DNA of 64,000 nt, taken from the IMG/VR virus record IMGVR_UViG_3300032213_003587, positions 52,442 through 116,441 of that record. The stretch is one strand, 5' to 3'. Of this stretch, positions 1 to 12,528 are shown in pieces. Position numbers and translations under genes: made by a program. The notes beneath the pieces are model-generated. The model searched no databases and was not told where the DNA came from. It was given only the letters and a program-made list of their open reading frames with translations. Origin of the DNA: a virus. Positions within the stretch are counted from its first letter, which is position 1; every line of letters starts with the position of its first letter.

Positions 1-1
1 A

Positions 2-1024
2 AATAAGCGCACGGAAAAGACTCAGAATTTTCTAGACAATTTCCGTTCCACTGAAACACGGGCTCGACCAAATATTCTGCAGGGACAGCAGGATCAGCTC
101 ATGGGGAGTGGACCTAAAGTTAAAGTTGAAGCGCGAGCCAAGGGTGGTCCTATTGTCAAAGGTCGACCCTATCTTGTCGGAGAAAAAGGTCCGGAATTAA
201 TTGTACCTAAAAGCGATGGTCAGGTAAATCCCTTACCTAAAGCTGAGGTCAAGGAAAATACCATGTTCAGCGATGCCGGTTCATACCGAGCTGACGATGC
301 CGCTGGCCCATTTGCCAAAGGCTCGGAAAAAATTGTCAAGGCCATCAAAGAACTTACTGATGTAGTAAAAAATCAACAGAACAACGGCCCGGGCGTTCCG
401 CCTATCATTCCCACAGGCATGGGTGGTAAACCAACTGGTGGTGGCCGCCCAAATGCCGGCAATGCTGCCAAGGCCGCCAAGAACGTCAAACCCGGTAGTC
501 CCGTAGTCATGGGTCTGTCGTTAATTGCCGGCTATTTTGGCATGAACATGATCGACGACATGGAAGAAAAGGCGCGGGCAGAACGTACGGCCAAATATGA
601 TGCCATGATTGCCAGCGGAGATCCTGAACAAGTAGCCAAGGGTCAGTTCATGAAAGAACAGGAAATGTCGACCTTTGAAAAATTAGGCAACATTAAAAAT
701 CAATTCAATGAATTGAACAGTCCGGAAAGACAGGAACGCTTAAAAGATGCGCCCTGGTATACTAGATATCTGGGCATTGGCGACGACTCCGCAGTGGCTC
801 CGAGTCTGCGTCCCGCACAAGGACCGGAAATAGCGGCTCGCACTACTGCCATAGCAGATCAACGCTCCGCTGCTGCGGCTCCGGTTATTATCAACGCACC
901 TACTGTGAATGCTCCAACTACCAAGGGCGGTGATAACACAGTAACCACGGTGATGCGAGCTCCGGTGCGACCCGAAGACAATGCGTTCAATAATTACATG
1001 AACCGACTATACAACGCTTTCTAA
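2..1024 (+). CDS. 5'-truncated tail tape-measure/baseplate-hub-like protein (C-terminal part)
   Basis: Frame is open from window start through the track ORF at 101; ARAKGGP...YLVGEKGPEL motif typical of phage tape-measure proteins; Pro/Ala/Asn-rich tail; convergent with gp32. Confidence 0.55.
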   Translation, partial: NKRTEKTQNFLDNFRSTETRARPNILQGQQDQLMGSGPKVKVEARAKGGPIVKGRPYLVGEKGPELIVPKSDGQVNPLPKAEVKENTMFSDAGSYRADDAAGPFAKGSEKIVKAIKELTDVVKNQQNNGPGVPPIIPTGMGGKPTGGGRPNAGNAAKAAKNVKPGSPVVMGLSLIAGYFGMNMIDDMEEKARAERTAKYDAMIASGDPEQVAKGQFMKEQEMSTFEKLGNIKNQFNELNSPERQERLKDAPWYTRYLGIGDDSAVAPSLRPAQGPEIAARTTAIADQRSAAAAPVIINAPTVNAPTTKGGDNTVTTVMRAPVRPEDNAFNNYMNRLYNAF

Positions 1025-1030
1025 TAGTAG

Positions 1031-1055
1031 AAACCCCGCCGAAGCGGGGTTTTTT
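1031..1055. terminator. Bidirectional intrinsic terminator with cUUCGg tetraloop (minus strand)
   Basis: aaaccccgc-cgaa-gcggggttt inverted repeat plus T tract between convergent genes; UUCG loops are typical of T4-like phages. Confidence 0.9.
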
Positions 1056-1066
1056 GTTGCTTGCGA

Positions 1067-1969
1067 TTAATCGTCGGCAGCTAGCTTGGCAAAGTAGCTA
1101 AGACTTTCATCATCCTCTTCTTCAACCGCGGCCTTGGGTGCGGCTTTAGCCACAGCCTTAACAGCCGGTGTGTCTTCGTCGAGGTCCATCTTTTCAGCTC
1201 GCGCCACAGCGGCATTGGCACCACTTAGCACACCATCCAATTTCTTCTTGAGCTCTTCGTAGCTCTTGAAGTTGCTTGGATCCAGGAATGCCTGCAGACT
1301 GTGCTGGTTGTTCCAAACCTTTTCAATTTCCGCATCATCTTCACTCAATGCCGCTGTGGCATCAAATTCCGACTTGTCGTAGTTACGATAACCTTCGACA
1401 TTGCGAATCTTGAGTTTAAAGTTTGCACCCTTCCAGAAGTCAAAAGGATTGACTGGTGCTTCGTCTTCGAACTGCGGCTGCATCACATCCTTGATCTTGT
1501 CGAAGATTTTCTTGCCAAACTTAAACAGCTTGACCTTGCCTTCGTTTTCCGGATGCTTGCTATCGCTGATGATTAAGACATTACAAATATAGCTCAGCTT
1601 GCGCTTCTGCTTTCGTGCCACTTCTTTGCTGGCTTCGCTACCGCTGTTCCAGAGCTCGTTGTTGAGTTCGGATACTGGATCAGGTTTGCCGATGGTGGTC
1701 AGTGAATTCTCAATATACCACTTCCCGGTTGGACCCTGAAAACCATGATTCCAAATACGCACCCAGGGCAGCTCTTCACCTTTGGGCGGGGGCAAGAAAC
1801 GAATTACTGCATAGCCATTGCCGGACTTATCTACTTCCGGTTGCCAAAAACGATCGTCATCCCGACTGTTACTACCACCTTCGGGTTTGCCAATCTTTTC
1901 AACTTCCTTCATGAGGTTGTCAAAATTACCGCGGCTGCTGCGTAGTTCGCTTAGACTATTGAATGCCAT
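1067..1969 (-). CDS. gp32: Single-stranded DNA-binding protein gp32
   Basis: DDRFWQPEVDKSGNGYAVIRFLP, GKWYIENSLTT, NPFDFWKGANFKLKIR, YRNYDKSEF, acidic C-terminus SYFAKLAADD. Confidence 0.97.
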   Translation of the reverse strand: MAFNSLSELRSSRGNFDNLMKEVEKIGKPEGGSNSRDDDRFWQPEVDKSGNGYAVIRFLPPPKGEELPWVRIWNHGFQGPTGKWYIENSLTTIGKPDPVSELNNELWNSGSEASKEVARKQKRKLSYICNVLIISDSKHPENEGKVKLFKFGKKIFDKIKDVMQPQFEDEAPVNPFDFWKGANFKLKIRNVEGYRNYDKSEFDATAALSEDDAEIEKVWNNQHSLQAFLDPSNFKSYEELKKKLDGVLSGANAAVARAEKMDLDEDTPAVKAVAKAAPKAAVEEEDDESLSYFAKLAADD

Positions 1970-2011
1970 ATTAGTATCTCCTTGTATTTACGTTGTATAG
2001 GCGTTGTATGT

Positions 2012-2206
2012 TTACTGCTGTTCTTCATCTAGTTCCTGCTCATCAAAATCCAATTCTTCATCGGACATCATAGTATATATGGTCTGAGGATATTTGTCAA
2101 TACGTTTTTCCGACCGATATTCTCTTTTACTTCGAACTTCGTCATCATAATCCGATGTACGATACTTCTTTACCGACATTTCAATCTCCGTATTTTCCCG
2201 AATCAC
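2012..2206 (-). CDS. Hypothetical acidic protein
   Basis: Fits the tight minus-strand gene packing; true start may be MSVKKY. Confidence 0.55.
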   Translation of the reverse strand: MIRENTEIEMSVKKYRTSDYDDEVRSKREYRSEKRIDKYPQTIYTMMSDEELDFDEQELDEEQQ

Positions 2207-2409
2207 ACCTTAATAAATGGCCAACGACTTACTCGCTCAGCCAAATAAGCCTGATTCTTTCCAAGTTGAATAATAAATTTATGCGTTTCGCGGATCATGT
2301 CATGCAGTTGGTTGATTTCAAAAACCATGTCCTGCACTCGATGTTCGAGATTTTCAAGGCGTGCTTCAGTTAAATCAGGTAAATCTTCCGAGGATAGTTC
2401 TGTAGTCAT
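2203..2409 (-). CDS. Hypothetical coiled-coil protein
   Basis: ATGA overlap with the next gene; AAGGA SD. Confidence 0.6.
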   Translation of the reverse strand: MTTELSSEDLPDLTEARLENLEHRVQDMVFEINQLHDMIRETHKFIIQLGKNQAYLAERVSRWPFIKV

Positions 2410-2977
2410 CTTCCTTGATCCGTAAAAATGGATTATACTTGCGAATAAGTCTGCTAAGATCCGGCCATATCAAAGTATCCTTGCAATTGTCATTGACGTT
2501 GGCTGCCCAATTCATCAATTTGTTTAAAATCACCAGAGTTTCGATTTGAATGGTCTTTCTCAAATAACAGCGCACAATCAGCGGATGTTGACCTTCGATG
2601 CTGTTTAATGCATCAGCCAGGTTATTTATTCCGGCCTCGTCACATTCTGTCTGTAAAATATGCAGATCCTGTTCAAATCGATAACGCAGACTTTCTCGAC
2701 GAGCCAACCATTGACGATAACATTCGGTGGCTTCACTATCATACACTCCACCATAGCGATTACCATCCACAAAGTTGGCTAGAAAGAAGTCACAGATTTC
2801 GGCATCCTTGTACTGCTTGACCAGACGACGAAACTGCGGTTCCTTGCCGGTGTCGAAAAAGCTCTTGCGACTTGCTCGAATACGACCCCGCATTTTTATA
2901 ACGTCGTAGTCTTCGGTTTGAAAGTGATTGCGCATTGCCAGGTACATCTTATAGGCTTCAAACTCAGTCATAATCAT
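2375..2977 (-). CDS. gp59: Helicase loader gp59
   Basis: FEAYKMYLAMRNHF...YD, IETLVILN, IRKYNPF; T4 synteny gp33-gp59-gp32. Confidence 0.9.
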   Translation of the reverse strand: MIMTEFEAYKMYLAMRNHFQTEDYDVIKMRGRIRASRKSFFDTGKEPQFRRLVKQYKDAEICDFFLANFVDGNRYGGVYDSEATECYRQWLARRESLRYRFEQDLHILQTECDEAGINNLADALNSIEGQHPLIVRCYLRKTIQIETLVILNKLMNWAANVNDNCKDTLIWPDLSRLIRKYNPFLRIKEDDYRTILGRFT

Positions 2978-3324
2978 AGAGGTAGTCTACCACTTTTCTT
3001 CATCATATTAGACTCTTCGGCTTCTAACCGAATCTTTTCTCGGAGGCTTTTATTGATCAGTGGAGCCACTACTTCAATATCAATGTCTTTTTCCGCACAG
3101 TAATTGATTACAATTTCCATGTGCGGTACACCGCTTTCAACATGCTGTCGTTCCACAAACAAACTAAACTCGTTAGCTGAACTAAACTCACGACTAATGA
3201 CAAATTGAGTAGTAATCTCCGGTCCATTTTCCGGTACTATGCGTTGATCTACAATCTCACCTTTTTTATTGGTGAGCTGCAGACCAACTATTTCCCTGGC
3301 ACCAATCTTTTCGTTGATTGCCAT
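2974..3324 (-). CDS. gp33: Late transcription co-activator gp33
   Basis: INYCAEKDIDIEVVAPLINKSLREKIRLEAEESN...RLPL; position directly upstream of gp59. Confidence 0.88.
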   Translation of the reverse strand: MAINEKIGAREIVGLQLTNKKGEIVDQRIVPENGPEITTQFVISREFSSANEFSLFVERQHVESGVPHMEIVINYCAEKDIDIEVVAPLINKSLREKIRLEAEESNMMKKSGRLPL

Positions 3325-3325
3325 A

Positions 3326-4237
3326 TTACACTTCTACGGGAGTTACACCAGCATGAGCCTGTTGATTCTGTGCCTGCAGATGCTGCTGTGTAAATGTGGC
3401 CACTGCTGCCAGATCACAGACATACTCATAGGTTCCTACATGCACGGTACGAGTCCAAGGTGCCAACCAAATTTTGCCGCCGAGTTGACGCCAGCGTTTG
3501 CAGAAGGTAAAGTCTTCGGAGGTATAGGCACGAGTTTCTGGATCAATGCTAACATCGAAGTAAGCATGAGCTTCACGATGTGGATCTGTAACACGAGTCA
3601 TGGTCTTTGGATCCATGGTTTCGGAACCGCCGCTGATGATCTTGATCTCCGGCAATTCAGCTGCCATCTTGGTAAATACATCGCGGTTAACCAACATCAG
3701 GCCAGTGGCAATGCTTTCTACTTCTACTGGCTCGGCAATATTAAATGTCAGGCTGTCACCTACGGGCTTGAAGGTTGATTCCGCAACCACGGCATTGATG
3801 GCATGACCAGGAATGTCGGGATTGCCTTTGACCACATTCTTAACTACTTCCCAGTTAATTTTCTTCTTGGCATATTGACCGCCAATAATGTCTTTGTCGC
3901 ACTGAATCATGCGCATCACATCGTCGGCATCAAAGCCCAGGTCGGCATCCAGGAACAGCAGATGTGTGGCCTGTGATTTAAGGAATCCTTCCACCAGAAT
4001 ATTACGAGCCTTGGTAATCAGGCTTTCATTGGCGGCAATTTCAAACATCGCTGGAATACCGGCCTGACCAAGGCGGTTCAAGAGATTGATCAAACTGATC
4101 ATGTACATGTAATTGCATTGGCCGCCGAACATCGGAGTAGCGATGAATACGCTCTTCTGCTTAGGTGGTTGGGGTTTATTAATGAACAGCGGATTAATCT
4201 GTTTGTTAGGATTACGCTGCGGCGGCTTTAGTTTCAT
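3326..4237 (-). CDS. GT-A-like glycosyltransferase (conserved phage family)
   Basis: FIATPMFGG, ESLITKARN, LFLDAD (DxD), SEDFTFCKRW, HVG. Confidence 0.7.
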   Translation of the reverse strand: MKLKPPQRNPNKQINPLFINKPQPPKQKSVFIATPMFGGQCNYMYMISLINLLNRLGQAGIPAMFEIAANESLITKARNILVEGFLKSQATHLLFLDADLGFDADDVMRMIQCDKDIIGGQYAKKKINWEVVKNVVKGNPDIPGHAINAVVAESTFKPVGDSLTFNIAEPVEVESIATGLMLVNRDVFTKMAAELPEIKIISGGSETMDPKTMTRVTDPHREAHAYFDVSIDPETRAYTSEDFTFCKRWRQLGGKIWLAPWTRTVHVGTYEYVCDLAAVATFTQQHLQAQNQQAHAGVTPVEV

Positions 4238-4240
4238 GAT

Positions 4241-4435
4241 CTACCAATCTCCATTGTCGAAACAAAAATAAAATTTAAAAAATAAGCACTTCAGATTGAT
4301 GGTAGGGTAGTCTTTGCGACATCCCCAACCATCTTCATAGTATATATCTAACTTCCACCAACTCCAATTTACTGGGTTTAAAATAATTGTAAACTCTAGA
4401 GTGCTGAAAGTCAATAACTTCTTCCAGGTTTTCAT
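4241..4435 (-). CDS. Hypothetical aromatic-rich protein
   Basis: Packed between neighbours in the same orientation. Confidence 0.55.
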   Translation of the reverse strand: MKTWKKLLTFSTLEFTIILNPVNWSWWKLDIYYEDGWGCRKDYPTINLKCLFFKFYFCFDNGDW

Positions 4436-4437
4436 GA

Positions 4438-4974
4438 TTAGTAAAAGATGTGATTGCCAATTCTAGCCTTGGGTTTGCGTTTCCAGCCCGGGTTTACATA
4501 GGTGGCATGAAAGAATTTTGCGCCTCGAAGTTCCGGTAGACGCACACCGTCAAGCATTACACGTCGCGCTACTCGCAGACTTTCTGCATACAATTCCGGT
4601 GCACGAATTTTTAAATTGCCTTCACATACCCAGCTGAACTGACATACAGTGATTCCCTGGTTGTGAGACTTTTGATGTACAACACCACAGACGGTACCGG
4701 GATAGTCTCCGCTCTGCACTCGATTCATGGTAACCTGGGCCACGGCAATTTTACCGCGATAGGGTTCGCTGCCGCTTTCAAAGTAAATATTGCGAGCCAT
4801 GCAGACAATTTCTTTCTGCAATCTCTGCTCTTCCTTCTTTCTAAATTCTGCATATTTCTGCTGCATAGCAGCATCGGCAGCCTGTGCCGGTGTGATGGGA
4901 TTACTGACTGTACCTAAACCAAACGATAAAAACATTACTGCAAAGAAAATTTTTGTGATGTGCTTGTTTAGCAT
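4438..4974 (-). CDS. Cell wall hydrolase, SleB (Hydrolase_2) family
   Basis: CMARNIYFES, AVAQVTMNRV, CQFSW, FFHATYVNPGW, IGNHIFY; N-terminal signal/TM segment. Confidence 0.92.
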   Translation of the reverse strand: MLNKHITKIFFAVMFLSFGLGTVSNPITPAQAADAAMQQKYAEFRKKEEQRLQKEIVCMARNIYFESGSEPYRGKIAVAQVTMNRVQSGDYPGTVCGVVHQKSHNQGITVCQFSWVCEGNLKIRAPELYAESLRVARRVMLDGVRLPELRGAKFFHATYVNPGWKRKPKARIGNHIFY

Positions 4975-4994
4975 TACTTCTCCTTTAAGTTGCA

Positions 4995-5010
4995 GGGCGG
5001 CGAACCGCCC
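4995..5010 (-). other. UUCG-capped RNA hairpin without a U-tract (mRNA stabiliser or processing site?)
   Basis: GGGCGG-TTCG-CCGCCC in the intergenic gap upstream of the SleB SD. Confidence 0.6.
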
Positions 5011-5017
5011 CTTCCCG

Positions 5018-5287
5018 TTAGGCAGATTTTTTGCTTACTTTATCTGTGGGTGTATTGGAAACGAAGCCGTTGAGCTCTTTGGCTTTATTGATGACATCGG
5101 TTTCACTGGGATATGCTGGCACTGCTGGATGGTCTGGAATAGCGCCGCCGTTTAATTTGGCAACCTCGACCCTAATGCGCCAGTCTTCTTGAAGTTGATC
5201 ACGCTTGCCAAAGTATTCTTCGACCAGCATGTCTTTCGCCATTTTTAGAAGTTCAAGGCGAATCTCGAACGGAGTTAGATTACTCAT
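5018..5287 (-). CDS. Conserved phage hypothetical protein (MSNLTPFEIRLELLKMAKDML family)
   Basis: AAAGG SD; N-terminus recurrent in T4-like environmental phages; late-promoter-like GATAAATA upstream. Confidence 0.75.
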   Translation of the reverse strand: MSNLTPFEIRLELLKMAKDMLVEEYFGKRDQLQEDWRIRVEVAKLNGGAIPDHPAVPAYPSETDVINKAKELNGFVSNTPTDKVSKKSA

Positions 5288-5350
5288 GATGTTACCTTTC
5301 TGTGTTGTGAGTGTGTAGTGGAAGTTTTAGGGATCTTCCAACCCTAAGAT

Positions 5351-5358
5351 TATTTATC
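5351..5358 (-). promoter_or_regulatory. T4-type late promoter variant (GATAAATA)
   Basis: One mismatch to TATAAATA; intergenic, upstream of 5287. Confidence 0.55.
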
Positions 5359-5360
5359 TA

Positions 5361-5435
5361 TCAACGATTTGCGATGTACATGGTGATTTCAAAACCAAAA
5401 CGCAGATCCTGTGCTGAGGGGGTGGTCCATTTCAT
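5361..5435 (-). CDS. pqqA: Pyrroloquinoline quinone precursor peptide PqqA (24 aa, MKWTTPSAQDLRFGFEITMYIANR)
   Basis: Hand translation; W-x-x-P...DLRFGFE-x3-Y...NR signature with the Glu/Tyr pair (EITMY); AGGAGA SD at 5441-5446; absent from the ORF track. Confidence 0.95.
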   Translation of the reverse strand: MKWTTPSAQDLRFGFEITMYIANR

Positions 5436-5504
5436 ATCAATCTCCTGGTTGTGCAGAAAAATTTCTGCTATTATATCTATGCAAATCACCGCTACAGGAA
5501 ATCA

Positions 5505-6161
5505 TTAATCTGCCATAATAGTATCGCGCCATAACTTGGCTTGATTTAAATCATTATTTCTCAATGTATTTATGATGTCTTTATCAACGAGATTGGGATC
5601 AACCCACCAATCTTCAAAAGCACCATAACCTTCCACACTAACATTACTAATCACCAATTCATATCCATGATTGGTCAAATATTCTCTGCTTTGATCTCGA
5701 ATGTCGTTGCCAGCCAAATAGCTATCATGTTCGAATGTAATTACTCGATAACGACGTTGGCTGGTATTAAAAATCTGCTGCAGAGCTTGAAATGTAATGT
5801 TCGGTGGATCGCAGTCCATGCTCAGATAATCGATGATCTGATCGGTGATGTCTGCTTGATTGAGCAGATCATTGTAGTCCACATAACAGGCATCGGCCAG
5901 GACTGCGGGATTGGCTCGTTCAGCATTGAACTGATTCACTGCATGCGGTAAAATATCCAGGCTCACCCCTCGCCAGGTAAAGGCATTTTCCAGCAACCAG
6001 GTGTTGTTGGTGTATTCCGGAACATTGCAGCCAATCTCCAGATAGGAGCCGTGTTCTTTGCCATCCAGCATCTGTATGACAAACAAATCCTGACCGGCCT
6101 GACTGCCGTTGCGATCTATGTCTTCACTGCCGGGAAATTTATGCTTTAAATTCAAATTCAA
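5505..6161 (-). CDS. FkbM-like SAM methyltransferase-fold protein
   Basis: SQAGQDLFV, YLEIG, IDYLSMDCDP, ITFEHD, FEDWWV. Confidence 0.7.
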   Translation of the reverse strand: MNLNLKHKFPGSEDIDRNGSQAGQDLFVIQMLDGKEHGSYLEIGCNVPEYTNNTWLLENAFTWRGVSLDILPHAVNQFNAERANPAVLADACYVDYNDLLNQADITDQIIDYLSMDCDPPNITFQALQQIFNTSQRRYRVITFEHDSYLAGNDIRDQSREYLTNHGYELVISNVSVEGYGAFEDWWVDPNLVDKDIINTLRNNDLNQAKLWRDTIMAD

Positions 6162-6164
6162 CTC

Positions 6165-6725
6165 CTAGGGATTGGTTGCGTGATGCGGTACATCAAATAT
6201 AAATGACACTCGTGGAACATCCGCAACATTCTCACTCCAATGATGATACTTGTTATTGAACCACATCAGGGTACCGGGTTCGATGACCACCGCTTCGACG
6301 GTGCCATCGGGATCTTCCACACTATACTTATAGCGTCCCTGCAGACTCAGATGATATCGATCCTTGTCCAGATAATAGCTTCCATGATCAATGTGACGTC
6401 CAACCTTCATGCCTACGGGCAGACTGAAGAACGCACAGCGTCGCACTGCATGAAAATTTTCCTTTAGGAAATCCACCATGGCGCGATGATGCTTCAGCGC
6501 CGGTGTTTGATGACAAATTTCGGTATCACCGACATATTGACCTAATCGCTCAATACCACCCATGACTAACTGTAGAATATCTACAGTGGTTTCGTATTTA
6601 GCCGGATCCTGCAGAGCCGTGCCCGGAAGCTTTTTCTGCGCACCCCAATCGTCTTTGAATTCTTCTAACTGTGCAAGAATTTCATCAACATTGATGCCGG
6701 TTCTAATTATGCGAATATTCTTCAT
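6165..6725 (-). CDS. Aspartyl/asparaginyl beta-hydroxylase-like 2OG-Fe(II) dioxygenase
   Basis: HID (HxD), RYHLSLQG, WFNNKYHH, RVSFIFD. Confidence 0.8.
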   Translation of the reverse strand: MKNIRIIRTGINVDEILAQLEEFKDDWGAQKKLPGTALQDPAKYETTVDILQLVMGGIERLGQYVGDTEICHQTPALKHHRAMVDFLKENFHAVRRCAFFSLPVGMKVGRHIDHGSYYLDKDRYHLSLQGRYKYSVEDPDGTVEAVVIEPGTLMWFNNKYHHWSENVADVPRVSFIFDVPHHATNP

Positions 6726-6734
6726 TGAAATACT

Positions 6735-6763
6735 ATTATGTATTAAATCAGCAATAAAGTCAA
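6735..6763 (-). promoter_or_regulatory. Sigma70-type promoter TTGACT-N17-CATAAT
   Basis: Near-consensus boxes with 17-nt spacer, 9 nt before the ATG at 6725. Confidence 0.7.
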
Positions 6764-6764
6764 T

Positions 6765-7028
6765 TTATTCGTCAAATACTCCGGCCACATCGTCTTCGCT
6801 GAGGAAGTAGGTTGGAATACCATCGATTGTAGTTGGATTGACCTTGTTCCAATCCACCAACAAGGTGTCGCCTACTCGAAGCAAGGTTACGTCTGGTCCA
6901 ATGGCAATGGCCTGGGCTTTGTCGATGCTGGCACCGACATTGCCTTTGATGATCAATCCAGACTCGGAAGTTTCTTTGTTTTTGAGACGCACGACTGCCA
7001 CGGTTTTTTTCAATGGTTTAATGTTCAT
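6765..7028 (-). CDS. groES: Co-chaperonin GroES (Cpn10; gp31 analogue)
   Basis: MNIKPL, TSESGLII mobile loop, AIGPDV...VGD, SEDDVAGV. Confidence 0.85.
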   Translation of the reverse strand: MNIKPLKKTVAVVRLKNKETSESGLIIKGNVGASIDKAQAIAIGPDVTLLRVGDTLLVDWNKVNPTTIDGIPTYFLSEDDVAGVFDE

Positions 7029-7047
7029 ATCATCCTTAGTATATAAT

Positions 7048-7761
7048 TTAATTCCAATATTTTGAATAATCTATTTCATTCCAATACTTTGCGTTGTTGC
7101 GATTCCAAAAATTTTTAATCAGATACCGGGCCATGCCAAAGTATCCCATCTTCTGAAATCTGCGACTATCCTGACCTAGATAGTGATTCATCAATTTGAA
7201 CTTGTTGACTGCATACATCTTGGACAGGAAGAAATCTTCACTGGTACCATACTTTTCAGCAAATCCACCAAATTCTTCAAACTTCGATCTGCGGGTCAAC
7301 ATATATGCACCAACAGCAAATGGTACCCAGTGTTTCATTATGTTGTTGATAGCATTGAACAACATAAATCCAACGTTGGCTCTGAAGTCGTTGTCATAGC
7401 ATTTTAAATAAAGACCAATTAAATCCAAATCTCTGTCTTCTAATTCACGCACAGTATCTGCTATAACGGTGTCGGAGAAAAATCTAACATCGCTGTCAAT
7501 GAATAGTATATATGGAGTTGTTACAAGTCTGGCGCCATTGTTCTTGGCAATGGAAACTGGGCCCCCGTCAATAATTTCAACATTTTGATCTTGATGAGTG
7601 TGATAACGTATAACCTGTCTAGTATTATCTGTAGAACAATCAGCAATTATAATTCTGGTGTTACCAATATCTTGTTTACGCAAAGACTCCAACAAGTGAG
7701 GAATATAGTCCGCCTCATTCTTGCAGGGAACAACAATGGTGATTTTGTCACTGAGTTTCAT
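7048..7761 (-). CDS. Glycosyltransferase family 2
   Basis: IVVPCKNE, IAD..STDNT, AKNNGA, LFIDSD, SED. Confidence 0.9.
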   Translation of the reverse strand: MKLSDKITIVVPCKNEADYIPHLLESLRKQDIGNTRIIIADCSTDNTRQVIRYHTHQDQNVEIIDGGPVSIAKNNGARLVTTPYILFIDSDVRFFSDTVIADTVRELEDRDLDLIGLYLKCYDNDFRANVGFMLFNAINNIMKHWVPFAVGAYMLTRRSKFEEFGGFAEKYGTSEDFFLSKMYAVNKFKLMNHYLGQDSRRFQKMGYFGMARYLIKNFWNRNNAKYWNEIDYSKYWN

Positions 7762-8518
7762 TAATTTTATCCTTTTCCTGGGTCCAGGTTACAATCTCCC
7801 ATGCTCCATCATGATGTTCCACCAATGCTGTGCAACTCTCAACCCAATCACCATCGTTCATATAAACTATGCCATCTATCTCTTTGATCTCTGCGTGGTG
7901 GATGTGTCCGCATATCACTCCATCAAAACCACGCTTGCGGCAATAGCCAACAAGATTACGCTCAAACTGAAACATAAAGTCCATGGCCTTCTTGACCTTA
8001 TGCTTGAGATACTTAGATAGACTCCAATAACCAAAGCCCATGCGATGGCGTATCCAATTATACTTGCTGTTAAGACTGAGTACAAAGTCATAGGCCTTAT
8101 CTCCTAGAAAACTTATCCAGGGGGCTAGTCTGGTTATGCCGTCAAAGAGATCGCCATGTACCACCAGATAATGTTTACCGTCGGCACCTATGTGCTCAAT
8201 CTGATTTGTTACTTCAATTAATCCAAAACCTATGCCATAGGGCATCAGTGGTCTTAAAAATTCATCGTGGTTGCCGGCTACATAGACTACACGAGTTCCA
8301 CGTTTAGCGTGACCCATGATTCGGCGCACTACATTGGTATGACTCTGCTTCCATCGCCATTTATTCTGCTGTATACGCCAGGCGTCGATGATATCACCCA
8401 CCAGGTACAGAGTGTCACAGGTATTGTGTTTAAGAAAATTGTTTAACTGTTCAGCCTTGCAATCTCGGGTGCCAAGATGCACATCGCTGATAAAAATACT
8501 GCGATAGGTTTTTTGCAT
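7748..8518 (-). CDS. LpxH-like (UDP-2,3-diacylglucosamine hydrolase family) metallophosphoesterase
   Basis: SDVHLG, GDIID, GNHD, HGD, CGHIH, NDGDWVESC. Confidence 0.88.
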   Translation of the reverse strand: MQKTYRSIFISDVHLGTRDCKAEQLNNFLKHNTCDTLYLVGDIIDAWRIQQNKWRWKQSHTNVVRRIMGHAKRGTRVVYVAGNHDEFLRPLMPYGIGFGLIEVTNQIEHIGADGKHYLVVHGDLFDGITRLAPWISFLGDKAYDFVLSLNSKYNWIRHRMGFGYWSLSKYLKHKVKKAMDFMFQFERNLVGYCRKRGFDGVICGHIHHAEIKEIDGIVYMNDGDWVESCTALVEHHDGAWEIVTWTQEKDKINETQ

Positions 8519-8535
8519 GTTATTTTTATTAGAAT

Positions 8536-8838
8536 TGCCGGCTGATTGGATAATAAGGACAGCCGGCGAAACCTCATCTAGTGCTTAAGCAGCTAGAGCG
8601 TATAACTCGTCGTTTGCAGTTATAGGTTTTGCTTCTTTTACGGAGATCGCCTACCGTGTTGTCCATGTCAGTACTTGTTACCCTGTCGAAACCAGGTCAG
8701 CCCCATCAGAAACATACTTCGTCCTGCAGTACAGTCCTTTTCACAAGGTGTGGCACGGTCTGCAAATATGCTTCTGGTGGAGCTGGGCGGAATCGAACCG
8801 CCGTCCAGAATACTTTTCCATCTACTTCATACAACAAT
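8536..8838 (-). ncRNA. ssrA: Circularly permuted (two-piece) tmRNA gene, tag peptide ANDELYALAA
   Basis: T-arm and acceptor 3' end GGCGGTTCGATTCCGCCCAGCTCCACCA (ends 8775) comes BEFORE the 5' end GGGGCTGACCTGGTTTCGAC (starts 8704); G-U alanine identity pair; resume context ATAACT-GCA; tag codons 8617-8585; outer ends approximate. Confidence 0.93.
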
Positions 8839-8842
8839 ATCT

Positions 8843-9238
8843 TTATTTAGTGGAGTTGGCTAGCTGCCGATAACCTCGACCCGTAGGATGCACCCCATCC
8901 TTGCTAAGTTCCGGTATGGGCAATACGGTATCGCCATAGACTTCGGCAATTTTGCGAATCATTTCTTGCCGATCCGGTTTAATAGCCGGAAGAATCCAGA
9001 ACACTCGCTCAGCCTTAACCTGTTCACGCAGAGCCTTTAAATTGCCCATGGTGTTGATGCTGCGCCAATCGTTGCTGCCCAGACTGATGATCACAGCACG
9101 CGCCTGCAGAGATCCACTTAAATAGATGCGATTCCAGTCCGCAGTATTGATGCCACCGTTGGCCAAGGCCACACATTCAGGTCGGTGATGATGCGTACCA
9201 ACCGCAATGCTGTCGCCGAGTATCATGCAGTCAATCAT
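8843..9238 (-). CDS. SGNH/GDSL hydrolase
   Basis: GDS, LGSND, DGVHP blocks. Confidence 0.85.
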   Translation of the reverse strand: MIDCMILGDSIAVGTHHHRPECVALANGGINTADWNRIYLSGSLQARAVIISLGSNDWRSINTMGNLKALREQVKAERVFWILPAIKPDRQEMIRKIAEVYGDTVLPIPELSKDGVHPTGRGYRQLANSTK

Positions 9239-9369
9239 AGAACCTCGTAGTCTTCTTTATAGGCACCGCACTCTGGACAGGTAAAATGGTCTGGCAATGT
9301 ATTCCAGGCACCTTCCAATTCTTCGTCGTGTTCATGACCACAGACTACGCATACATGTACTTCGCTCAT
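9235..9369 (-). CDS. Rubredoxin (44 aa)
   Basis: Hand translation MSEVHVCVVCGHEHD...WNTLPDHFTCPECGAYKEDYEVL; two CxxC motifs; ATGA overlaps on both sides; absent from the ORF track. Confidence 0.9.
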   Translation of the reverse strand: MSEVHVCVVCGHEHDEELEGAWNTLPDHFTCPECGAYKEDYEVL

Positions 9370-9815
9370 AGTGTCTCCTTGATTTGTTGATATGCTTCGG
9401 CATGACGTTTCTCAATCTTGGCCAGTGCCGCAAATCTACGTTCTGCTTTTTTCAATACATCGGCAAATGCTTCAGCGTGTTCACGACTTTCATCGATCTG
9501 ATGGGCGGCTTCTTTGGCTGCTTCAACATTGCCTTCGGCTTCTGCAATGACCTTGAACTGCGGATACATCTGCGTGTATTCGTAGGTCTCACCTTCGATG
9601 GCCTTCTCCAAACATTCTTTGGTATTAGGACGGCCAATCAGCAGTTCTAGATGACCCCAGGCATGCACAATCTCCTGATCCGCGGTATGCTCGAAATGAC
9701 GAGCAATTTCTTCATGACCTTCTTCGCGCGCAATTTTGGCAAAGTAGCGGTACTTAATATGTGCCATGCTTTCGCCAGCCAGGGCACTTTCAAGATTTTT
9801 TAATGTAACACTCAT
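9366..9815 (-). CDS. Rubrerythrin (ferritin-like di-iron domain)
   Basis: NLESALAGESMA..KY, EIVHA, GETYEY..MYP, E..H ligand pairs. Confidence 0.92.
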   Translation of the reverse strand: MSVTLKNLESALAGESMAHIKYRYFAKIAREEGHEEIARHFEHTADQEIVHAWGHLELLIGRPNTKECLEKAIEGETYEYTQMYPQFKVIAEAEGNVEAAKEAAHQIDESREHAEAFADVLKKAERRFAALAKIEKRHAEAYQQIKETL

Positions 9816-9823
9816 TGTTTCTC

Positions 9824-10369
9824 CTAACTGTAGTGTAGGTAACCACCTACGATATATTTTGGTCCCGACCGCGGCATCAATCCTGCGTGCAGATATTGAA
9901 AGCCGGTGGGGAACATGATCAGTCTGGATCGACGAGGCTGCACTCTAATGGGCCGGTCCAGGCCATAGATTTCAGTTTCACCGCCATCTTCGACGTCGTT
10001 TAAATACCAGAAATAGACTAGAAAGCGTTTCATGCTCGCTCCATTCCAGGTATCACAATGAGGGCGAAATTCATCGATGTGCGGCAGATACCGCTTCATG
10101 CGAATTTCTTCCCAGCTGTGATCGGGTTGCACGTTGCGATCATCTAGACCGCATTCCGACCAATAACGTGCCTTGTACTGCTGTATGGTTCCAAGCAAGG
10201 GCCGGTAATCCCAGGCGGCCTGCATTAGATTGATTTCTGTGAACTTCTTGATACCATCATCCTGATAATGTTTCCGATCATAGGCTTCAAAGTCCTTGAT
10301 TAATCGGTCGCAATATTGTGGCGGTAATGTATTGTCATATACTTTTACGTAATCACTTAAATTCATCAT
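9824..10369 (-). CDS. 2OG-Fe(II) oxygenase (prolyl 4-hydroxylase-like)
   Basis: HCD, YLNDVEDGGET, FP...HAG...KY. Confidence 0.88.
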   Translation of the reverse strand: MMNLSDYVKVYDNTLPPQYCDRLIKDFEAYDRKHYQDDGIKKFTEINLMQAAWDYRPLLGTIQQYKARYWSECGLDDRNVQPDHSWEEIRMKRYLPHIDEFRPHCDTWNGASMKRFLVYFWYLNDVEDGGETEIYGLDRPIRVQPRRSRLIMFPTGFQYLHAGLMPRSGPKYIVGGYLHYS

Positions 10370-10404
10370 CGATCCTTATTATCAGTCTACACCGCTATTA
10401 TAGG

Positions 10405-11097
10405 CTACCTGTCAATAGCTGTCGATAGATTTTCATAATTATCTCGCCACATCAATAATTCACTGACCCATTTATCTCTGAACTCAGTAAACACCTGCGG
10501 TTCGCCTTCTTCCACGGCAATCAATACTGCCAATCTATTAATGGGTATTTTAGTGAGCTCTTCATACATTATGGCATAAGCAGCGGCCTGCATAAAATAA
10601 CTAGAAATCCATTCTTTTTTCTTGGGTTTTGTGCTAGATTTGAAGTCGATAATTGATAATTTACCGTCAAATTCGCCAATACAATCCACAGTTCCGGCCA
10701 GTCTGAGGTGATGAGAATACAGAGCTGTCTCCTGGCAATGTATATTATCAACGCGATCCAACAAGGGCATCAACTTTTTAAACATTTCGAAATGCAGGGG
10801 ATTGATGGTCTTAGATGTATCGAACGGAGATTGATTGTCCAGATAGCGCTCTGCGGCCTTGTGCATGCCCGTACCTCGACCTGCGGCTACTCGACTTATG
10901 GTGTTGGCCTGTTCGGCTCCTACGCGTTTTCTCCAATCTAAAATTACGTCTCGATTTTTTTCGGAGAGAACGGTGGTAACGCTGGGATAGCGAAGACCGG
11001 TCGGAGTATTATAGACTCGGCGACCGGTGCTTTCAGTTATTTGTTCAAGTCTGGGAACGGGCTGTCCCAGCCCGAATCCCACATGATTAAAGGTCAT
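10405..11097 (-). CDS. PD-(D/E)xK (Cas4-like) exonuclease of T4-like phages
   Basis: YPSVTTVL, RGTGMH, AGTVDCI, IIDFKSS, YFMQAAAY. Confidence 0.88.
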   Translation of the reverse strand: MTFNHVGFGLGQPVPRLEQITESTGRRVYNTPTGLRYPSVTTVLSEKNRDVILDWRKRVGAEQANTISRVAAGRGTGMHKAAERYLDNQSPFDTSKTINPLHFEMFKKLMPLLDRVDNIHCQETALYSHHLRLAGTVDCIGEFDGKLSIIDFKSSTKPKKKEWISSYFMQAAAYAIMYEELTKIPINRLAVLIAVEEGEPQVFTEFRDKWVSELLMWRDNYENLSTAIDR

Positions 11098-11098
11098 A

Positions 11099-11716
11099 TT
11101 ATGATAGGTGTTTTATATTTTCTTCAAAGTGTTTCTTACGCTCAGCCAGACCGAGATTACCGCCGTTGATTACTTTAGTAGCTTTGGTCATGTCCTTGGC
11201 ATCGGCAATGGCATTCAGGCCATTCTTTTTCCAGAACCAGCAGGCACTTTCAATGGCGCCTTCCAGAGTGTCTAGATACGCCACAGTCTCATCCATGGTT
11301 TTACCAACAGCCTTGCTGAATGCTGTATAGTTATCTTTGCCGGTGAGCTGAATAGCACCACGACCACGATACTTCCAACCATCGCCGCTGGCTTCTGGAC
11401 CATTGCCCATGCGATCCGAATATACCTTGTTGGCAATCTTTTCTGGATTACGCTCATAGGGCTTGGCCGCTTCTTCGGAAACGAAACGCTTGGGCCAGGT
11501 GCCGTGCAGTCCCTTAGCTGAATAGTTTAGATTCTCTTTGAGTTTGGTGAAGTCCACACTCTCATGGCCGCATTGAGCCATGAAGGCTGCCACACGCTCT
11601 TTGGTGTTGATTTCATACTTAGGTAAAACTGCGGCAAGAGCTGCATGCAGTTTTTCCGGTTCTTTGTTATTATGAGCGCACTTGGCGATCTGGTCTTTAG
11701 TGAAGTTGAAAGTCAT
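11099..11716 (-). CDS. GH19 chitinase-like endolysin
   Basis: FMAQCGHES, ENLNYS, GDGWKYRGRGAIQLTGKDNY, INGG. Confidence 0.92.
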   Translation of the reverse strand: MTFNFTKDQIAKCAHNNKEPEKLHAALAAVLPKYEINTKERVAAFMAQCGHESVDFTKLKENLNYSAKGLHGTWPKRFVSEEAAKPYERNPEKIANKVYSDRMGNGPEASGDGWKYRGRGAIQLTGKDNYTAFSKAVGKTMDETVAYLDTLEGAIESACWFWKKNGLNAIADAKDMTKATKVINGGNLGLAERKKHFEENIKHLS

Positions 11717-12528
11717 GCTAGATCCTTTACATAGAGTTTATTGTAATGTTCTACTAGATTTGGATGACGGTCCCACTGATGTACTACCGCAGGTCGTTGT
11801 CCGTATATTATAAGTTCATCACCATCAAACTTAATCTTATTAGGGTGAGTTAGACATATTGTAGCTACACCATCACCATTTTTATGCTGCACATGATCTA
11901 AGAGATTTTTATGGAAGATCCAGTTATGGCAGGCCTGCTCATCGGGAATGCCGCCGGCCTTCTGCATGGCATCTAAACTACGTTCGTTGATCAGGGCCAG
12001 GATATAGCGCATGATGCTTTCGGCATCGCCGAGCGTGGTACCTGAGCAGATGATGGGCTTGTCTTCGAAGAATTCAATTTCTTTCTCACCGTAGTTATTG
12101 ATGAGAATGGCGCGATTGAATCTTTCGGTGCCAGCTGTAAATTCCAGATCTTCCTGGAAGGCATGCAGGCCAGCGTCGGGAATTTGTGCAAATACATCGC
12201 CTTGGAATACTAGATCGCGCACGTCGCAGAGGAATACCTTGTCGTAGTAACCGCGACCTTCCAGCAGTATGTCCAGATATTTGAAATAGCGAGTGTTATG
12301 AATGGCACTGGGAATCCAGTATGCCGCGGTAAAGAAACGCACATCCACGCCCTGGTCAAGCAACCAGTTAATTTTTTCCTGAGTGCAGTCAGGCTCGATG
12401 AGCAGCACCAGCGGATGCTGACTGCAGTAGCGTTTCCAACTTAATACAAAAGGTGCAATGGCATCAATTTTATAACCAAATGCCGTACCCAAAATTAAAT
12501 TAGTCTGTTCCATATCATCCTCAATCAT
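11713..12528 (-). CDS. Putative GT-A glycosyltransferase
   Basis: FLCDVRDLVFQGD, ICSGT, DEQACHN, VHQWDR. Confidence 0.65.
   Translation of the reverse strand: MIEDDMEQTNLILGTAFGYKIDAIAPFVLSWKRYCSQHPLVLLIEPDCTQEKINWLLDQGVDVRFFTAAYWIPSAIHNTRYFKYLDILLEGRGYYDKVFLCDVRDLVFQGDVFAQIPDAGLHAFQEDLEFTAGTERFNRAILINNYGEKEIEFFEDKPIICSGTTLGDAESIMRYILALINERSLDAMQKAGGIPDEQACHNWIFHKNLLDHVQHKNGDGVATICLTHPNKIKFDGDELIIYGQRPAVVHQWDRHPNLVEHYNKLYVKDLA

Follow-up and report, generated by a model that had tools for sequence, protein, structure and literature searches.

PqqA is the sacrificial substrate of the PQQ pathway, in which one peptide is spent per PQQ. After PqqD has bound the PqqA leader, the Glu and Tyr of the Glu-x3-Tyr pair, the residues that become PQQ, are cross-linked by the radical-SAM enzyme PqqE; the cofactor is then completed by a protease together with PqqB and PqqC. 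Lone pqqA genes in phages are, as a kind, already published and common. T4-like phages from Lake Baikal (population VP_266, assigned to Methylophilaceae) carry PqqA together with a viral methanol dehydrogenase, and a PQQ-boosting role as an auxiliary metabolic gene (AMG) is proposed in the available part of that report (Coutinho et al. 2020, Microbiome 8:163; PMC7678222). A 2026 reservoir study counts viral pqqA, pqqD, and pqqE among AMGs, according to the part of it available (PMC13188868). Beyond these two, a literature search found nothing further on phage copies of pqqA, PMC11118758 being about bacterial PqqA; the available portions of the main texts on Melnitz, MEP401/402, and Venkman (PMC9004378, PMC10580990, and PMC8163748), supplements aside, leave a phage pqq gene unmentioned. 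In bacteria, Methylophilaceae carry 3 to 12 pqqA copies per single pqqBCDEFG, as stated in the available text of Beck et al. (2014, PMC4109929).

We analyzed a stretch of 64,000 nucleotides (the window), which forms the final 64 kb of a linear, 116,441-base IMG/VR virus record estimated to be ~72% complete. Like the phage in the window, the Baikal phages are uncultured T4-like freshwater phages with PqqA and, in the available text, no described pqqBCDE operon; they differ in having genomes of ~35% GC, a Methylophilaceae assignment, and a methanol dehydrogenase (PMC7678222), whereas our record has a GC content of 46.9%, no PQQ_2 match, and a peptide of the ...DLRFGFEITMYIANR type. A sequence-only reading of the window had implied that a phage pqqA was new; this is unsupported, since T4-like phage PqqA has been in print since 2020, as the same portion of that report attests (PMC7678222).

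The cultured methylophages Melnitz, Venkman, P19250A, MEP301, and MEP401/402 likewise have a lone, intact PqqA open reading frame (ORF), theirs of 23 to 24 amino acids (aa), with 59 to 71% identity to the window peptide and belonging to type ...EMRFGFEVTMYVMNK or type ...IMTR. The pqqA of Venkman and that of MEP301 are antisense to their neighbors, whereas the window pqqA lies on the same strand as its own. Melnitz, like our phage, is a T4-like myophage with a two-piece tmRNA; the Melnitz tmRNA is reported as alphaproteobacterial in the available part of PMC9004378, whereas that of the window phage is of beta type, and from this pair the tmRNA type seems to follow host class. Orphan pqqA genes of bacteria share with the phage gene the multiplication of the substrate gene away from the enzyme genes; they are chromosomal and host controlled, whereas the phage copy travels with a lytic-type phage genome.

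The pqqA gene and its genome context

The source of the record is an uncultured T4-like phage. Around pqqA, and on its strand, are genes for a gp32 single-strand-binding protein (phrog_224; E value, 1e-117), the gp59 helicase loader, a gp33-type coactivator of late transcription, a cell-wall hydrolase (Hydrolase_2), Cpn10, a protein resembling Asp/Arg hydroxylases, a metallophosphoesterase, and a GT2 glycosyltransferase, with ribonucleotide reductase and DNA ligase farther along the record. The best tblastn matches of gp32 were to OM43 phage Melnitz (56%), cyanomyophages, and a pelagimyophage; megablast of window positions 1 to 12000 against GenBank phages gave no match. A two-piece circularly permuted tmRNA (8531-8886, minus strand; tag ANDELYALAA, called with ARAGORN) scored 129.7 bits against Rfam beta_tmRNA (RF01850), which it matched over the full length, and 148.3 bits against tmRNA_permuted. 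The glycosyltransferase and the calcineurin-like metallophosphoesterase form an overlapping pair (7048-8518, minus strand) with 70 to 84% identity in the IMG/VR contigs L026, L108, and L116. In the Asp/Arg-hydroxylase-like gene (186 aa, 6165-6725), a contig of run X3 (record 15) fuses position 6169 to 6719 via 11 different letters, and a related strain appears to be without this gene.

The pqqA coding sequence (5361..5435, minus strand) runs from an ATG at 5435-5433 to a TGA at 5363-5361 and comprises 24 codons plus the stop; its translation, MKWTTPSAQDLRFGFEITMYIANR (24 aa), contains a Glu16-x3-Tyr20 cross-link pair and a W-T-x-P leader motif. The gene stands alone in a 217-nt gap between the stop of the upstream gene at 5505 and the start of the next gene at 5287. 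An earlier range of 5361-5446 arose because the coding sequence and the Shine-Dalgarno (SD) site were counted together. The frame is also open from an upstream GTG in the ORF listing (5361..5489, 42 aa); the 24-aa reading is the sensible start because all homologues start at a Met adjoining Trp.

The two PqqA profiles named as a check in the sequence-only reading both matched the peptide above cut-off: Pfam PF08042 at 38.9 bits (cut-off, 21.1; E value, 7.9e-10), covering the whole 19-position model, and the NCBIfam equivalog TIGR02107 at 36.7 bits (cut-off, 20). Together with the sequence and its translation, these matches confirm the 24-codon minus-strand PqqA ORF proposed there, whose claimed E-x3-Y pair is present as E16/Y20. 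When all six frames of the 116,441-base record were searched with the PqqA profile, exactly 1 match was found (E value, 8.4e-10). Among the matches listed, E16 and Y20 (...FGFEITMY...) are the same as in 120 bacterial PqqA peptides, and the leader Trp and Pro also occur in all 120. The length of 24 aa falls within the usual ~20 to 40 aa, and the W-T-x-P leader is N-terminal, as in PqqA; an exact-sequence look-up found no entry for the 24-aa peptide in the protein collection. The usual adjacency to pqqBCDE is lacking (0 matches in the record), which is no bar to PqqA membership because orphan pqqA copies are normal in bacteria. The phage peptide is predicted to be convertible to PQQ by PqqD binding and PqqE cross-linking.

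Next after pqqA lies an 89-aa gene without known family (5018-5287, minus strand), which matched no Pfam or PHROG family and had one weak phage match only. A candidate role for its product as a PqqD-like chaperone was dropped, PF05402 having no match in the record and the protein no Pfam or PHROG family.

The sequence-only reading had noted that no pqqBCDE genes lie in the window, and this holds throughout the rest of the 116-kb record by both profile searches and tblastn. Profiles of PqqE, PqqC, PqqD, PqqB, Radical_SAM, and PQQ_2 had 0 matches at E<=1 in the ~72%-complete record, and the PQQ_2 propeller search found no PQQ-dependent dehydrogenase there. The PqqC result says little, since the control for that profile matched nowhere; in its place, tblastn was run with Acinetobacter PqqB-E (operon of L006), which gave nothing at E<=1 against the record, while the positive control matched 96/120 bacterial pqqA loci. 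As the record is ~72% complete, pqqB-E could lie in the missing ~28%, and fuller relatives were examined for this reason. Neither the complete Melnitz genome nor a 356-kb phage estimated to be 96% complete, both with pqqA, contained a PqqE above cut-off or a PQQ_2 protein.

Distribution among phages and likely host

A peptide tblastn search of 50,697 GenBank phage records matched 12, of which 10 are phage records: Melnitz (4 records), P19250A, Venkman, MEP301, MEP401, MEP402, and an uncultured podovirus. The other two, both named "Acinetobacter phage MD-2021a," were set aside as bacterial: their contigs carry a full pqqABCDE operon, and such records inflate the phage match count for pqqA. One of them (L006, 144 kb) also carries fur and ppk and looks like a bacterial chromosome filed as a phage. 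The GenBank phage pqqA ORFs that were opened are intact, with ATG and SD, and 6/6 tested passed Pfam PqqA at 37 to 43 bits. The matched ORF was annotated as PqqA in 0/12 GenBank records, and in the two examined, Melnitz and the podovirus, an opposite-strand "hypothetical protein" coding sequence is called where pqqA matches, which upholds the claim that gene callers miss the gene.

In IMG/VR, at least 120 contigs matched a degenerate pattern for RFGFE[VI]TMY, and all 120 of the matches listed have an intact ORF of 22 to 29 aa; none of these 120 loci (1.02 Mb in all) contained a pqqB-E homologue at E<=1e-3. Since the core motif was itself part of the search pattern, its conservation in this set is partly circular. 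Outside the pattern, the leader Trp and Pro are invariant in 111/111 distinct DNA versions among the matches listed, the Pro using 4 codons, and pN/pS over 11 non-pattern codons in the same versions is 0.39. In an alignment of 13 relatives, the ORF and its SD alone are conserved, and the flanks are wholly divergent. Two contigs (L073 and L079) retain the order pqqA, 89-aa gene (65 to 68% identity), hydrolase, gp33-like gene, and gp59, and three (L108, L116, and L026) carry an upstream phosphoesterase or glycosyltransferase with 70 to 84% identity. Lone pqqA recurs in myo-, sipho-, and podophage genomes. The 10 GenBank phage records, the at least 120 IMG/VR contigs, and the order shared with L073 and L079 bear out conservation in related phages. 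Viral flanks, 92% identity to a bacterial PqqA, and bridging contigs mark pqqA as a host-derived gene within a viral genome, and the intact ORFs, shared order, pN/pS, and conservation limited to ORF and SD mark it as kept by selection in related phages.

The C-terminal half of the phage peptide, RFGFEITMYIANR, occurs exactly in at least 120 bacterial contigs. The best 80 titles of these are nearly all Burkholderiales (Burkholderia, Paraburkholderia, Polaromonas, Rhodoferax, Comamonas, Hydrogenophaga, Limnobacter, and Oxalobacteraceae), with a few from Methyloversatilis, Thauera, or oddly labelled metagenome-assembled genomes (MAGs), and none is from Methylophilaceae. The closest peptide among the matches listed, from a Burkholderiaceae MAG (L170; GC content, 52%), is identical at 22/24 residues (92%). 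By sequence, the phage peptide is of Burkholderiales type, ending ...DLRFGFEITMYIANR. With the betaproteobacterial-type tmRNA, the peptide type makes a Burkholderiales host likely, and the host is probably a Burkholderiales betaproteobacterium outside Methylophilaceae with its own pqqBCDE. Against order-level genomes, the tmRNA matched 26/401 at ~70 to 75% over ~130 nt or in short conserved pieces, which does not discriminate among them.

PqqE was above cut-off in 5/5 tested bacterial genomes with the closest PqqA, and in 4/5, PQQ dehydrogenases of the methanol/ethanol family gave 3 to 8 matches, 2 or more of them over cut-off; the closest bacterial genome (G005) had no dehydrogenase of that family at E<=1e-20. 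A PqqA match was present in 109/401 Burkholderiales-order genomes, many with 2 to 7 matches. No pqqB-E lay within 8 kb or less at 24/120 listed bacterial pqqA loci (including L137, L138, L162, L173, L189, L196, and L204), and pqqE was on another contig in 4/4 checked genomes with an orphan bacterial pqqA; orphan pqqA is common in Burkholderiales-type genomes too. The ORFs of the phage record (G000) had no match to the 120 bacterial loci at E<=1e-8; the orphan pqqA copies of bacteria thus do not stem from mis-binned contigs related to this phage. Three MAG contigs titled "uncultured Bifidobacterium sp." (L137, L198, and L210; GC content, 48 to 59%) carry a Burkholderiales-type orphan pqqA (MNWTTPAATDL... 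or MAWTTPAATDL...) and are probably mis-binned or mislabelled.

Putative expression signals around pqqA

An SD site, AGGAGA (5441..5446, minus strand), lies 5 nt before the ATG, as the sequence-only reading had described. That reading had also placed a TATAAT box at 5470-5475; the hexamer is there (minus strand, 40 nt before the ATG) and resembles a -10 element, and its standing as a promoter is weaker, since a sigma-70 consensus scan called no promoter at this site for lack of an acceptable -35. The same scan found 2 promoter-like sites in 4900-6300 versus 3.5 +/- 2.0 in shuffles. Between the -10-like box and the SD site is a perfect 7-bp inverted repeat, GCAGAAA-TT-TTTCTGC (5453..5468, minus strand), which we interpret as an operator or a 5' hairpin; it starts 2 nt past the TATAAT, so a transcript begun at the usual distance would start within the repeat. 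A terminator scan and folding found no terminator 3' of pqqA, and minimum-free-energy folding, which is blind to pseudoknots, gave 5288-5365 no advantage over shuffled sequence (z, 0.29). With no called promoter and no terminator, pqqA may simply be read through from upstream. Directly past the pqqA stop and ahead of the 89-aa gene (within 5288-5360), the sequence GATAAATAAT resembles the T4 late-promoter box, whose consensus we take to be TATAAATA.

Among the IMG/VR matches listed, an SD-like site was found no more than 18 nt from the start at 110/116 viral pqqA loci with enough flank. An exact TATAAT lay no more than 80 nt upstream at 44 of these 116 loci versus 22/600 random positions, and a terminator-like hairpin no more than 70 nt downstream at 41 of 116 versus 5/600. 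Of 111 distinct listed viral upstream regions, 54 contained a perfect inverted repeat (6 bp or longer) between -55 and -9, versus 64/600 random positions in the same loci. The loci behind all these counts are not independent of each other. Across phages, pqqA tends to form a self-contained mini-unit of -10 box, inverted repeat, SD, and often a terminator; the window gene has the TATAAT, the SD, and the inverted repeat of this unit but not the terminator.

A separate palindrome, CATAC...GTATG, absent from this window, lies 38 to 88 nt upstream of pqqA in seven IMG/VR contigs (L011, L016, L036, L039, L062, L108, and L116). It was counted in 7/112 distinct listed viral regions, 1/600 control positions, and 0/118 Burkholderiales-type bacterial regions and is a candidate operator in one phage subgroup, apart from the gene described here.

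Proposed role and wider meaning

The best reading, which we hold to be probable, is that this is a genuine, selected, phage-borne pqqA acting as an AMG that would supply the consumed substrate to host PqqD, PqqE, PqqB, and PqqC and so sustain PQQ-dependent dehydrogenases. During infection, a small unit of its own (-10-like box, inverted repeat, and strong SD) would drive production of the peptide, which would be bound by host PqqD and cross-linked between Glu and Tyr by PqqE; the cross-linked peptide would then be turned into PQQ by a host protease, PqqB, and PqqC. More cofactor for periplasmic PQQ dehydrogenases of the methanol/ethanol type could then yield more energy from the infected cell. 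Since one peptide is spent per PQQ, an extra substrate template would raise or sustain cofactor supply, and the phage copy would fit the dosage logic of bacteria that multiply pqqA alone. The case resembles cyanophage psbA in that the phage resupplies a fast-consumed part of the host energy machine and not the whole machine; psbA differs in encoding a structural, catalytic protein subunit, whereas the product of pqqA is a peptide sacrificed as substrate when the cofactor is made. Given the stability of PQQ, new synthesis is not evidently limiting in a short infection, and a benefit "after host shut-off," as put forward in the sequence-only reading, is an assumption.

PQQ made through host enzymes might instead serve something other than dehydrogenase respiration, as a redox scavenger or as a cofactor for a phage quinoprotein in the unsequenced part of the genome. 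Consistent with this are the lack of a PQQ-dependent dehydrogenase in the record, the lack of such an enzyme in the closest bacterial genome at the threshold given above, the 28% of the genome that is missing, and, in the available part of PMC7678222, the pairing of PqqA with a viral methanol dehydrogenase in the Lake Baikal phages. We regard it as unlikely, given the several methanol/ethanol-family quinoproteins in 4/5 candidate host genomes; the complete Melnitz genome, with pqqA and no PQQ_2 protein, indicates that a phage quinoprotein is not required.

It is still less likely that the peptide is a decoy that occupies host PqqD and PqqE, lowering PQQ or tying up the radical-SAM enzyme for takeover or superinfection exclusion. 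The occurrence of pqqA alone, its probable high expression judged from the strong SD, and the 2/24 residues, at leader positions, that differ from the closest host peptide would suit such a role. Yet Glu16, Tyr20, and all of RFGFEITMYIANR match the functional bacterial PqqA of 120 genomes among the matches listed, and bacteria multiply pqqA themselves. Loss of a cross-link residue would be expected of a decoy; all 120 listed viral copies keep both, though by design of the search pattern.

That pqqA is a host fragment recently captured and of no use to the phage is about as improbable as the decoy. The gene is very short and host-like (the 92% identity noted above) and lies in an accessory-gene region, as such a passenger might; against this, the 75-nt ORF and its SD alone are conserved where the flanks of relatives are wholly divergent, synonymous changes predominate, and the same lone gene is found in genomes of all three phage morphologies.

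The integrity of the assembly was examined with contigs from public runs aligned to 4400-6800. Of these, X6 record 25, which comes from another study, bridges 4699-5525 (aligned at 4699-5065 and 5232-5525), and X3 record 12, from another sample, spans 5232-5704, so the junctions on both sides of pqqA exist beyond this assembly. The X6 alignment shows a gap of 1 base within the ORF, at 5418, as well as a base inserted behind 5446, and the reading frame of that variant may be affected. The sequence-only reading had allowed that read mapping might expose the segment as a host chimera, and contigs from other runs instead join pqqA to phage genes. That the viral contig is chimeric or contaminated with host sequence is hardly credible: the same runs do hold pqqA-only pieces from other organisms (loose ends at 5363-5408), but contigs of another sample and another study bridge pqqA to both neighbors, phage genes flank it on both sides for tens of kilobases, L073 and L079 share the gene order, and a GC anomaly is absent (0.44 around pqqA, within a local range of 0.36 to 0.50).

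With substrate supply to host enzymes as the preferred reading, what is added here is modest: another example, with a likely non-Methylophilaceae Burkholderiales host, and the description of a mini expression unit. At 75 bases and invisible to most callers, pqqA is nonetheless among the more widespread phage AMGs in waters where PQQ-dependent oxidation matters. The gene is missing from the annotation of cultured methylophage genomes, and these cultured systems (Melnitz or Venkman on OM43) make peptide-only cofactor boosting testable. We suggest, tentatively and as a possibility to which we give a minority chance, that lone pqqA is a general "cofactor-precursor moron," packaged as a mini-unit and not confined to phages of obligate methylotrophs; if so, the peptide type could mark the host. 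If the repeat is a 5' stabilizing hairpin or an operator, phages would tune the output of a sacrificial RiPP substrate independently of their own gene-expression program.
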